The notes beneath the pieces were generated by a model. The model searched no databases. It was given only the letters and a program-made list of their open reading frames with translations, and had not been told where the DNA came from. From Escherichia coli O157:H7 (GTDB lineage Bacteria > Pseudomonadota > Gammaproteobacteria > Enterobacterales > Enterobacteriaceae), in assembly GCF_013167455.1 (NCBI RefSeq), contig NZ_CP038328.1: DNA of 64,000 bases. The stretch is one strand, 5' to 3'. A program made the position numbers and the translations under genes. This document shows positions 24,394 through 30,488 of the stretch, piece after piece. Within the stretch, counting starts at the first letter, position 1, and every line of letters starts with the position of its first letter.

Positions 24394-25845
24394 TCAACTA
24401 AACAACATCGCGATTTTGCCGAGAGCATAACCTATCACCAGCACCGTTAAGCTGATTTTGATAATGCTGGTAATGCTCTGTGGTTTTTCATCCTCATCAT
24501 TTTTTTCTTCATGGTTTTCAGGTGTTGGCTCATCGACATCTTCATCCTCCGGCTCGAGTTTTACTTTCGTCAACAGCATCCGGGTGATAATGGCCTCTAA
24601 TGGATGAGCATCTCCGCCTTCCAGCCTTGTATTAAGACGGGCCAGCATCTCTTGTTTCGGAAACGCTTCAAGTACTACCTGTTCCGCTACCCGATACAAA
24701 TCCAGTAACGGTGAATCTTCTTCTGTCTCGCTACCGACTCTCGATTTCCACCACGCCCATGCTTTGCGTTTGAAGAATAGCGACTCAATAAACGATTGAC
24801 CTAACGGCGATAGTTTTCCGCTATGTAAAATTTCCGCCCATAACAGACGCGTCCGGGCGCTCTCACCAGGAACATATTTCAACGGTTTACCTTGCGCATC
24901 TACCATGCTCCGCGCTTCGATAACCATCACTAATAACGCGAAATAATCCGGGCAATGTTGTGCGCTCCACTGCAACAACAAATTATCGGCTTGTGTAGAT
25001 GGGTAACTTCCCCAGTACGCGCAGAGATCGGTAAGCAGGCTTTCCCCCTCGCCGCAGTACAAACGTTGTGCACACTGGTAATACCGGGCATCTTCGCTTT
25101 CTGGTTCTTCCATTTGCCACTGTTCGGCTACAGGAATGAGTTCCGCCATACCTGTTTGCACCGAGCTGTACCAGCGCAACAGTTTGCGATGTAACTTTGC
25201 ATCATCAGGAATGAACCACGGACCTTCCATCGCCAAAAACGCAGTGACATAGTCAGGATGGTAACGGCAGCAACGTTCCAGCGCGAAGTAATACTCAACA
25301 GTCTGGTTCTGCAACGCAACGGGATATACCAGAAGGCCAAGGAAATCGAAACAATCACCAGCCTGAATGGCCTCAAGAAAAGCCTCCCTTTCTTACTCAT
25401 CTATTCCTTCGCTGTCATTAAACGAATGCCAGTTCAAACGCTCTGCCAGCAAAGAAGCACAATTTAATGAAAGATATCGCGCTTCTATAGCGATTGCACA
25501 CAGCGGCCAGCGTAATTGATCGACATCCTCCATGTTCCAGGTATTTAATTGCTGAATAAATTTCTGCCAGGCGGAGGGCTGAAAACGATCACTTTCTGAA
25601 TCCAGTAATGCCCTGAATACACGTAGTATTTCATGCTCAGTGGCATCATCTTTTTCTTCATCATCTGCTTCCTCGACAGGATTTACCGCCAGTCGCAGGG
25701 CCTCTTCATAGGCCTGGCGTAATGCTTTAAACCCTTGCGGATCGGTTTCGGGATGACATAACGGTAAGCGAGCAAGATAAGCCTGGCGGATAATGTCTAT
25801 TTGCGTCGTGCTTTCAATTTCGAGGATTTGCCAACATGTTTTCAT
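24394..25845 (-). pseudogene. djlC: J-domain co-chaperone DjlC (YbeV) interrupted by an in-frame TAA
   Basis: One frame encodes 150 aa, then a TAA (plus-strand tta at 25393-25395), then 332 more codons; total 483 codons. The aligned djlB residue is Glu (EIDEEELE vs GIDE*ERE), suggesting GAA to TAA. C-terminal hydrophobic tail anchor. Confidence 0.7.
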
Positions 25846-26549
25846 AGGTCGCTCACATCCTTAAGCGTTACCGGGCATTCAGGCTGGACAGTTAATGGCT
25901 GCCAGGGAAGCGTGGCATAGAAACGATCGCTTCCCGCAGCCAGCTCTTCGAACATCCGACTCCCGGCGCTATCGTATTTGTACAGGGTTAGCGCCTCGCG
26001 TAGCGAAGCGTTGTCTTCGCATTGAGAAGATTGCCAGTAGAGACGCCCTAGTGAATAGGCGGAAAAATAGTGCATCCAGCTGTGATAGTAATGGTGAGCT
26101 CGTTCATAGACGCGCGATTGCAGCCATAAACTCTCGTCTTCCGTCAGCCACTTGTTGAGCACACCGACCCGTGACAGAAACCCCATTCGAACATAATCCC
26201 AAGCTTTGATTCCCCCTTCCCCACAACACATAGCGGTTTGGGCAACGAATTGGGTATAAATCAACCCTCTCTCCGAGCCACCAGCAATTAATGCTTTCCA
26301 CTCTTCAGGGGAAGAGCGATGCCATGTCAGATATAAGCCAGCTAAATCATTGGCATGACCATCATCAGTCATCTGATAAATAGTCTGAATTAAATCATCA
26401 CGATTATTTATTCCCCAGGATGATGAGAGATCGAATTCTTTTATCCCGGTATACATTTTTGGCGAGTCATGCGCGGGTTTGCAACCCTGATTAAGTATTT
26501 CCATGGGCGCAGAAAGCGCAAAAAGAAGATATTGTTCTTCCTTATTCAT
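25842..26549 (-). CDS. ybeU: DUF1266-like protein
   Basis: 235-aa ORF; its stop overlaps the djlC start (ATGA); paralog of ybeR. Confidence 0.9.
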
Positions 26550-26650
26550 TTGTTAATAATCCCTTAAGTGCATTAACTGACTACTTTTTTATTATTGATG
26601 AGTATAAACTTGACGCTTTCAAAATAAAAAGAAAATCGAAGCATTCACAC

Positions 26651-27205
26651 ATGAATAAAAAATTAATGTATATATTCACAATTTTTATAGTTGCAGCAAT
26701 TACCTGTATTAGCCAACCCAAGAAAACGACGTTGCGTGATAAAGCCATGGTGAATTATGCCTTTGATTATTTAAGCTCACCGGGCAGTCTTCCATTCACC
26801 ACGGCAGCCACGGAGCTTTCCGCGATTCATGGTCACTCAACGTCGCAATATCGCCTTGGAGAATTTTATCTTCATGGTAGCGACGGTAAACCACTGGATT
26901 ATACACAGGCGAGATACTGGTATGAGCAATCAGCGGAACAGGAAAATCCACGCGCGCAAAGTAAACTGGGGTGGATCTACCTCAAAGGTCTGGGGGTCAA
27001 ACCCGACACCCGTAAAGCAATTCTCTGGTATAAGGAAGCAGCTGAACAAGGGTATGCTCATGCTCAATATACTTTAGGTTTGATCTACAGAAATGGCTCA
27101 GGTATTAATGTTAACCATTATGAATCTCAAAAATGGTTAAAACTGGCCGCCAAACAACATTACAAAAATGCGGAAAGATTACTTGCCGGGCTTCCCGCAC
27201 ATTAA
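26651..27205 (+). CDS. ybeT: Sel1-repeat protein with N-terminal signal/anchor sequence
   Basis: 184-aa ORF with hydrophobic N-terminus [19 protein letters not shown] and Sel1-type repeats (WY..AA.QG). Confidence 0.9.
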
Positions 27206-28642: not shown

Positions 28643-29346
28643 AGGTCGCTCATATCCTTAAGCGTTTCCGGGCATGTGGGGTAGTCAGCCAGTGGTTGCC
28701 AGGGTAAGGTCGCGTAATATGCATCGTCACTGGCAAATAATTGATAAAACATATCATTGCCGGAATCGTCGTATTCTTTACGCGCTAAGAATTCACGTAA
28801 TAAAGGCAGATTATCATCTTCGGGAGACTGCCAATATTGCCGACCAAAGGTATAACCGGCAAAGTATTGCCGCCAGTTACTATAATAACGTAGAGCCCGT
28901 AGATGAATACGCGACTGGATCCATAGACTTTCTTCTTCACTCAACCAGTTATTAAGTACGCCCATTCGACTTAAAAAACCCATCCGGACATAATCCCATG
29001 CTTTAATTCCTCCCTCACCACAGCATTCGGCTGTGCTGGCGACAAATTGCGCATAAGCCTGACCTTGCTCATTTAATTCAGCAAGATAGTCACGCCATTC
29101 ACATGGAGAATAACGAAACCAGCGGTGATAAAACCCTGCCAACCGCGCGGCATGACCGTTATCGATCATTCGGTGAATTGTGCGCAGCAGGTCATCACGG
29201 TCATCAATTCCCCAGGAGGAAGAAAGGTCAAAAAAGCGTGTACCTAAATACATTTTGGGTGATGAATGCGAAGGTAAACAGCATTCATTGCGTATTTCCA
29301 TCGGAGTGGAAAGTGCAAACAATATTTTTTGCGACTCCATGTCCAT
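28639..29346 (-). CDS. ybeR: DUF1266-like protein
   Basis: 235-aa ORF; its stop overlaps the djlB start (ATGA); paralog of ybeU. Confidence 0.9.
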
Positions 29347-29510
29347 ATGATTTATCCTTAAATATTCATTGAATGAATATTAGCCGCATTGCGACGCTCG
29401 TTTATTTATACTTTTCTGACGCGACATAATACGCATAAAATAAGGCTTGCGCAAAAAATGAAACACATAAAAATTCAATATATTTTATCTACAATCATAA
29501 GGAAATGATA

Positions 29511-30488
29511 ATGATTTTCACGTCAAGTTGCTGCGATAATTTATCAATAGATGAGATTATCGAACGTGCTGAAAAAGGCGATTGCGAGGCTCAATATATT
29601 GTTGGGTTTTATTATAATCGCGATAGCGCAATTGACTCTCCGGACGACGAAAAGGCCTTTTACTAGCTGAAGCTGGCCGCTGAGCAAGGTCATTGTGAAG
29701 CACAGTATTCCTTAGGGCAAAAGTATACCGAGGATAAAAGCCGTCATAAAGATAATGAGCAAGCCATCTTCTGGCTGAAAAAAGCTGCCCTACAAGGCCA
29801 TACTTTCGCTTCCAACGCCCTTGGCTGGATACTGGATCGTGGAGAAGACCCCAACTATAAAGAAGCGGTTGCCTGGTATCAGATAGCCGCGGAGAGCGGA
29901 ATGTCTTATGCGCAAAATAATCTTGGGTGGATGTACAGAAATGGCAACGGAGCCGCACAAGACTATACGCTGGCATTTTTCTGGTACAAACAAGCTGCAT
30001 TACAAGGCCATAGTGACGCGCAAAACAATCTGGCCGATCTTTATGAAGACGGAAAAGGCGTTGCTCAAAACGAGACACTCGCCGCATTCTGGTATTTGAA
30101 AAGCGCACAGCAGGGTAATCGGCATGCTCAGTTTCAAATTGCATGGGATTATAACGCTGGCGAAGGGGTGGACCAGGACTATAAGCAAGCGATGTACTGG
30201 TATCTGAAGGCTGCCGCTCAGGGGAGCGTCGGCGCTTACGTCAACATCGGTTATATGTATAAACACGGACAAGGCGTTGAGAAAGATTATCAGGCTGCCT
30301 TTGAATGGTTTACGAAAGCCGCTGAATGCAATGACGCCACTGCCTGGTATAACCTGGCCATTATGTATCACTACGGAGAAGGAAGACCTGTCGATCTCCG
30401 ACAGGCTCTCGACCTGTATCGTAAAGTTCAGTCATCCGGAACCAGAGATGTCAGTCAGGAAATTCGTGAGACTGAAGATTTACTGTAG
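29511..30488 (+). pseudogene. ybeQ: Sel1-repeat protein YbeQ interrupted by an in-frame TAG at codon 52
   Basis: ATG at 29511 opens a frame reading ...DDEKAFY*LKLAAEQG...; TAG at 29664-29666 sits where a Sel1 repeat expects Trp (TGG). The frame then runs 274 codons to the TAG stop at 30486-30488 (track ORF 29901..30488 is its 3' part). Confidence 0.7.

Follow-up and report, generated by a model that had tools for sequence, protein, structure and literature searches.

The closest described relative of the locus studied here is the HscC system of Escherichia coli K-12 (b0644-b0650), which combines HscC, a specialised Hsp70, with the J-domain proteins DjlC (YbeV) and DjlB (YbeS). Stimulation of HscC by a J-protein has been demonstrated biochemically for DjlC alone, and DjlB is presumed to be a second partner of HscC; both are tail-anchored in the inner membrane (PMC8215388). 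Deletion of hscC, or of djlB and djlC together, leads to Cd2+ sensitivity; no growth phenotype is seen in rich medium after deletion of hscC, and HscC, DjlB and DjlC are all below detection in exponential growth (PMC8215388). We analysed the equivalent locus in a 64-kb stretch of E. coli O157:H7 DNA containing about 66 coding sequences (CDS), hereafter called the window. The cluster hscC-djlC-ybeU-ybeT-djlB-ybeR-ybeQ lies there between rihA and ybeL, in the same gene order as in K-12 and with 96-99.6% nucleotide identity. It contains an HscC-type Hsp70 gene beside tail-anchored J-domain genes that are orthologous to K-12 b0646-b0650, at 96-98% nucleotide identity, and that RefSeq names hscC, djlB and djlC, and, as in K-12, HscC, DjlB, YbeR, YbeU and YbeT are intact. 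Unlike K-12, O157:H7 appears to lack a functional DjlC able to stimulate the HscC ATPase, djlC being interrupted at codon 151, and to lack YbeQ, so that the system, if active, would have to run on DjlB alone.

The two interruptions were read directly from the translated frames. The djlC gene (24394-25845, minus strand), whose K-12 counterpart encodes the tail-anchored co-chaperone of HscC, reads as 483 codons interrupted once, by a stop at codon 151. The ybeQ frame (29505-30488, plus strand) also contains one internal stop. Codon comparison with K-12 MG1655 identified the first as E151*, a GAA to TAA change at 25393-25395 on the minus strand (mutated base 25395), and the second as W52*, a TGG to TAG change at 29664-29666 on the plus strand (mutated base 29665). 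Codons of ybeQ are numbered here from the K-12 start, window position 29511, which places this Sel1-repeat gene (325 amino acids in K-12) at 29511-30488. Both genes have exactly their MG1655 lengths, with zero indels, and both are listed as pseudogenes with an "internal stop" in the RefSeq annotation of strain EDL933, in which no other CDS is flagged as a pseudogene across the equivalent 64 kb. The window itself differs from EDL933 over the 64 kb compared by five single-nucleotide polymorphisms (SNPs) and one intergenic 1-bp indel, and about 7 kb around the two stops is 100% identical to dozens of O157:H7 chromosomes. A first-pass annotation of the window had proposed that djlC and ybeQ are each interrupted by a point nonsense codon while every flanking core gene across the 64 kb is intact; the comparison bears out both statements.

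What is left of DjlC is at most a soluble 150-residue N-terminal fragment holding the J domain; residues 152-483 (the C-terminal 332 amino acids), two thirds of the protein, are lost together with the client-binding part and the hydrophobic tail anchor. YbeQ is reduced to 51 residues and loses 274 of its 325, including most of the Sel1 repeats; the next in-frame ATG is codon 131 (29901). Truncations of this extent would be expected to abolish the function of both proteins. For both genes we found an in-frame stop at the syntenic position and a reproducible allele, two of the features expected of a lineage-specific unitary pseudogene.

The distribution of the two alleles was determined in 5,426 complete E. 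coli genomes with 55-mers in which the mutated base is central, so that every 28-base megablast seed contains it. The djlC stop allele was detected in 308 genomes, O55:H7 included, and that of ybeQ in 298, in all cases at 100% identity. Among the matches listed (40 per allele), every serotyped record was O157. The two stops are themselves already on record, in the RefSeq annotation and in the 2010 comparison with O55:H7. The first O157 annotations had split both genes, ybeV (djlC) into ECs0687/ECs0688 and ybeQ into Z0791/Z0793 (PMC2806823), and the annotated O157:H7 pseudogenes djlC (ECs0687/ECs0688) and ybeQ (ECs0682; Z0791/Z0793) are the same loci with the same mutations. To this our analysis adds a count of the carriers, the order in which the two stops arose and the context of recurrent decay across the species.

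The order of the two losses can be deduced from O55:H7. Strain CB9615 is annotated with djlC as a pseudogene and ybeQ intact, and on the O157 haplotype the intact W52 allele is present in several O55:H7 strains. In their supplementary tables, Zhou et al. 2010 (PMC2806823) record a ybeV (= djlC) pseudogene for CB9615 and place the ybeQ SNP in the O157 lineage; the ybeV pseudogene of CB9615, G2583_0812, is the same locus as djlC of the window. Since O55:H7 combines the djlC stop with an intact ybeQ, the loss was stepwise: djlC E151* predates the split between O55:H7 and O157:H7, and ybeQ W52* followed on the O157:H7 branch. The two stops are independent events, as had been proposed. CB9615 carries a second stop in djlC, Q21*, which lies inside the J domain, as expected of a dead gene. 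The Q21* change (CAG to TAG) is carried by O55:H7 CB9615/2013C-4465 and, on an unrelated haplotype, by two Malawian isolates (among them cS33a, NZ_CM176586.1), in which djlC is 41 nucleotides distant from the O157/O55 gene and is without E151*. The identical stop on two haplotypes reflects either recurrent mutation of one site or recombination over a very short tract.

Both djlC and ybeQ are intact in a single O157:H7 strain, the Turkish isolate TR01 (NZ_CP033605.1, 752595-770649, corresponding to about 20600-38700 of the window). Its rihA, hscC, djlC, ybeT, djlB, ybeR, ybeQ, leuS, lptE, nadD and cobC products have non-O157 protein accessions, and all gene products that differ, from rihA to cobC, carry non-O157 alleles. 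Homologous recombination with DNA of a different E. coli lineage has apparently replaced a segment of at least about 14 kb in this strain, incidentally "repairing" both pseudogenes.

The cluster as a whole was surveyed across the species, as the first-pass annotation had suggested, by using the 8 kb from hscC to ybeQ as a query against the 5,426 genomes and scoring it as kept at a coverage of at least 80%. By this measure it is kept in 3,697 genomes (68%), compared with 5,417 (99.8%) for an equal-sized block of non-essential genes in the same window, cit/dpi, taken as control. In 890 genomes (16%), including Nissle 1917, the cluster is wholly absent and rihA directly adjoins ybeL. The rihA-ybeL spacer of these cluster-less genomes is 44 bp long and contains an imperfect palindrome (GCCGGATGACATCACGCCATCCGGC) that resembles the repetitive extragenic palindromic (REP) type; in strain 222 the junction joins window positions 22580 and 30558. 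A deletion of 2,808 bp, equivalent to window 27343-30150, is shared by 566 genomes (10%), which have thereby lost ybeR entirely, djlB for the most part and two thirds of ybeQ from its 5' end. Another nonsense change in ybeQ, Q171* (CAA to TAA), is carried by 94 genomes, among them BL21 / E. coli B, E. coli C and wild isolates. In the E. coli B-type strain INSC1002 it accompanies a frameshifted djlB/djlC chimera and the loss of ybeU and ybeT, hscC being intact; HscC is left in this strain without an intact cognate co-chaperone. Other events were an IS1-mediated deletion of hscC-djlC-ybeU, insertions of IS5 and IS1 in ybeT (two strains), a copy of ISApl1 at the djlB 3' end in a further strain, and a djlB frameshift in one strain. 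In Shigella sonnei CenAsiaIII, ybeQ is a lineage-defining pseudogene (PMC6811581). No point inactivation of hscC was seen in any lineage sampled. The flanking genes were intact in the sampled loci, except for an IS150 insertion in gltL of the B-type laboratory strain. Nine annotated clusters of full length, all from lineages other than O157/O55:H7 and the TR01 recombinant, were also inspected; all seven genes are intact in eight of them, including the most divergent, and the ninth is that of the strain with the djlB frameshift. The survey indicates that the cluster is far less stable than the control block and has been inactivated repeatedly and independently.

We estimated the strength of selection from the ratio of nonsynonymous to synonymous substitution rates (dN/dS), calculated pairwise by the Nei-Gojobori method over 13-17 lineages. 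The flanking genes gave values of 0.006 (gltL), 0.008 (ybeL), 0.023 (leuS) and 0.049 (rihA). Those of the cluster were 0.065 for hscC, 0.077 for ybeT, 0.10 for ybeU, 0.11 for ybeR, 0.16 for djlB, 0.16-0.18 for djlC and 0.19-0.20 for ybeQ, the values for djlC and ybeQ being unchanged whether pseudogene copies were included or not. The most constrained gene of the cluster is hscC, and constraint is weakest on djlC and ybeQ, the pair hit in O157:H7. Intact copies of the cluster are therefore under purifying selection that is several-fold weaker than that on their neighbours. The first-pass annotation had suggested relaxed or negative selection on the module. Relaxation is supported by the retention of the cluster in 68% of genomes against 99.8% for the control and by dN/dS ratios above those of the flanks, but selection against the module is not, the intact copies being under purifying selection.

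The recent history of the locus was examined by comparing the window with CB9615. About 45 differences were found over the 64 kb, seven of them in the cluster, a density that does not differ significantly from that of the flanks (p=0.31). The ratio of nonsynonymous to synonymous changes was 6:1 in the cluster and 21:12 in the flanks, likewise without a significant difference (p=0.39); with so few changes the comparison as a whole is underpowered. Nonsense changes accumulated since the O55/O157 split make up two of seven coding SNPs in the cluster and none of 33 in the flanks, nominally p=0.027, one of the two lying in the already dead djlC. Within O157:H7, a young clone, the 8-kb cluster is essentially invariant. 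The first-pass annotation had placed the relaxation "in this lineage", a wording that calls for refinement: djlC was hit before the O55:H7/O157:H7 split and ybeQ after it, and neither SNP density nor the type of change sets the cluster significantly apart from its flanks between O55:H7 and O157:H7.

About 24 of the roughly 45 differences between the window and CB9615 fall in the 11-kb cit/dpi region (48896-59871), giving about 2.2 per kb as opposed to about 0.4 per kb elsewhere. In the CB9615 annotation dpiA is frameshifted (window equivalent 51975-51978), whereas it is intact in the window. This excess could reflect either a patch of recombination or faulty sequencing of CB9615.

The coincidence of two pseudogenes in one seven-gene cluster carries little weight by itself. 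CB9615 contains 69 pseudogenes among 5,097 genes (about 1.35%), which gives a probability of 0.0037 that at least two genes of a given block of seven are affected. Because about 2.7 such seven-gene blocks are expected per genome by chance, the pairing of the two stops in one genome is not compelling, and it is the population data that carry the argument.

Downstream of hscC (22664-24334, plus strand), which encodes an intact protein of 556 amino acids with 27 nucleotide and five amino acid differences from K-12, the genes form two paralogous units, each made of a minus-strand operon running from a DUF1266 gene to a J-protein gene and of a divergent Sel1-repeat gene. The first consists of djlC, ybeU (25842-26549, minus strand; DUF1266), which overlaps the start of djlC by 4 bp in the same operon, and ybeT (26651-27205, plus strand; Sel1-repeat with a hydrophobic N-terminus). 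The second consists of the djlC paralogue djlB (27215-28642, minus strand), the ybeU paralogue ybeR (28639-29346, minus strand; DUF1266) and ybeQ. Apart from djlC and ybeQ all of them are intact, as judged from their open reading frames and RefSeq annotation, together with comparison to K-12 or, for djlB and ybeR, alignment to their paralogues. DjlB and DjlC are 49% identical over their full length and YbeR and YbeU 59%; YbeQ and YbeT share the Sel1 repeat, within which they are about 35% identical, and the hydrophobic N-terminus is present in YbeT and absent from YbeQ. One gene has been hit in each unit, as had been claimed: in O157:H7 the first is without its J-protein and the second without its Sel1 protein. 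DjlB is the sole intact J-domain partner remaining for HscC in the strain studied. The G+C content of the cluster is 46.9%, compared with about 52% in the flanks. At residues 31-33 or thereabouts, both DjlC (window 25740-25760) and DjlB (28540-28560) have HPE in place of the canonical HPD of J domains, a variant conserved between the two paralogues and in K-12.

Taken together, these data probably describe two ordinary loss-of-function point mutations that became fixed in succession through clonal descent from O55:H7 to O157:H7, in a neutral or nearly neutral loss from a partly redundant module that can be dispensed with under most conditions. The djlC stop came first, before the split, and the ybeQ stop second, on the O157:H7 branch. 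Because DjlB can presumably substitute for DjlC and the module may add little fitness in the niche of O157:H7, both stops would have been effectively neutral and may have reached fixation by drift or hitch-hiking in this highly clonal pathogen. The same weak constraint would explain why the cluster has repeatedly suffered deletion, disruption by insertion sequences and point inactivation in other E. coli lineages. Its dispensability is supported by the absence of the cluster from 890 genomes, the 2,808-bp deletion in 566 and the retention in 68% of genomes against 99.8% for the control block.

Several points weigh against this explanation. Neutral drift and selected loss look alike when only two events in a young clone are available, and the same two genes have been hit repeatedly in unrelated lineages, which could reflect positive selection for their loss. 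It is not obvious that YbeQ and YbeT could replace each other, given their identity of about 35% in the repeats and the hydrophobic N-terminus found in YbeT alone, so that the argument from redundancy is solid for DjlC and weak for YbeQ. Finally, eight of nine clusters are intact and dN/dS is well below 1, which indicates that the module matters somewhere.

An alternative reading is that loss was adaptive. The co-chaperone and adaptor genes would then be costly or conditionally harmful, for example by misdirecting HscC or by acting against virulence, and knock-outs would have been positively selected in O157:H7 and in other pathogens. We regard this as unlikely. The repeated and independent inactivation of djlC and ybeQ speaks for it, as do the absence or reduction of the cluster in many human-associated lineages, Nissle-type strains included, and the status of ybeQ as a lineage-defining pseudogene in S. 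sonnei. But hscC, supposedly the toxic part, is without point inactivation in the sampled lineages and shows the strongest constraint in the cluster, and eight of the nine annotated full-length clusters are fully intact. Intact djlC and ybeQ, at dN/dS 0.16-0.20, are under purifying selection. The excess of nonsense changes in the cluster since the O55/O157 split (2/7 against 0/33, p=0.027) also favours selection, yet one of the two changes struck a gene that was already dead. In addition, the proteins reportedly escape detection in normal growth, so that their loss would save little, and TR01 has re-acquired an intact cluster with no signs of counter-selection. A costly or conditionally toxic function of the module, which the first-pass annotation had put forward, accordingly found no support: point inactivation of hscC is missing from the sample, its dN/dS of 0.065 is the lowest in the cluster, and most full-length clusters are intact. 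Overproduction of HscC, which the first-pass annotation had cited, is reportedly growth-inhibitory, a claim that probably goes back to Arifuzzaman et al. 2002.

A more specific version of adaptive loss draws on the nonsense changes of O55:H7 and O157:H7, the S. sonnei pseudogene and the absence of the cluster from Nissle-type (B2) strains. It holds that in host-adapted pathogens the HscC module works against fitness or virulence and that selection has therefore removed its J-protein and Sel1 adaptors. The complementary loss of one gene per unit in O157:H7 would then leave a deliberately re-wired hybrid of HscC, DjlB and YbeT with altered client targeting. We consider this version improbable.

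Still less credible is the reading that the interrupted genes continue to work, through split or truncated products or through read-through of the stops. Possible residual products are a soluble 150-residue DjlC J-domain fragment that would still stimulate HscC and a 195-residue YbeQ Sel1 fragment initiated at codon 131. The J domain does lie entirely upstream of the djlC stop, ybeQ has an in-frame ATG at codon 131, and in the early annotations of O157 the fragments were entered as genes of their own. The Q21* stop of O55:H7 djlC, inside the J domain, speaks against maintenance of the N-terminal fragment, and no Shine-Dalgarno-like sequence was evident upstream of the candidate restart codons. 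The frames downstream of both stops are open over their full length, but this is expected of any recent pseudogene in a clone as young as O157. The stops themselves, TAA and TAG, correspond to no known recoding signal. Suppression by an amber tRNA of the glnV/glnX array was rejected for the window: its tRNA array (10121-10826) contains seven genes, Met, Leu, two Gln UUG, Met and two Gln CUG, corresponding to metT-leuW-glnUW-metU-glnVX and including the classical supE (glnV) site, and all anticodons are wild type, among them those of the four tRNA-Gln (two CTG, two TTG). The weakest alternative, that both stops are sequencing or assembly errors, had been named as a way in which the proposal could fail; nothing was found in its favour, and it is ruled out by the identical alleles in 298 and 308 independently sequenced complete genomes from many laboratories and platforms, and countered further by the same stops in genomes of the Sanger era (2001-2010).

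A role of the cluster as an anti-phage defence system was also considered and rejected. In PADLOC-DB 2.0, HscC, DjlC, DjlB, YbeU and YbeR had no family match, and YbeT and YbeQ gave weak repeat-type hits (E=2e-3 and 1e-4, respectively) in which no stretch passes alone. No link between hscC and phage defence was found in the literature, and a literature search for DUF1266 returned a single, incidental paper.

The practical consequences are modest, and the finding is one of ordinary gene decay in an accessory module that does not open a new biological question. Its first meaning (MECHANISTICALLY) is that a K-12-type HscC system should not be assumed in O157:H7, where DjlC and YbeQ appear to be lost. 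The two alleles are also clean phylogenetic markers of the stepwise descent from O55:H7 to O157:H7. The lineages in which the cluster is absent (16%), half-deleted (10%) or, as in several including E. coli B/BL21, point-inactivated provide natural knock-outs for seeking the function of HscC and of its DUF1266 and Sel1 partners, and the collapsed B/BL21-type cluster is relevant to studies of HscC or to protein expression in BL21. A computational host-pathogen interactome (PMC5395655) treated YbeQ as functional, specific to "lineage I" O157:H7 (EDL933, Sakai) and targeting human proteins of endoplasmic-reticulum-associated degradation (ERAD). Since all 298 carriers have the same W52*, the claimed strain specificity must be a product of differing annotations and not of differing sequences, and the predicted host interactions of YbeQ rest on an annotation artefact.

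The decay of the O157:H7 cluster can finally be set beside that of other lineages. As in the reductive evolution of S. sonnei CenAsiaIII, point inactivation of non-essential genes, ybeQ included, has been fixed by clonal descent; unlike Shigella, O157:H7 is far less degraded, with two of about 66 CDS affected in the 64 kb. The other collapses seen within E. coli, the 2.8-kb deletion of 566 genomes and the chimera of E. coli B, likewise reduce the two J-protein/DUF1266/Sel1 units toward one. There the reduction proceeded by deletion or unequal recombination, whereas in O157:H7 it took one point nonsense change per unit and left a mixed set, with DjlB from the second unit and YbeT from the first.

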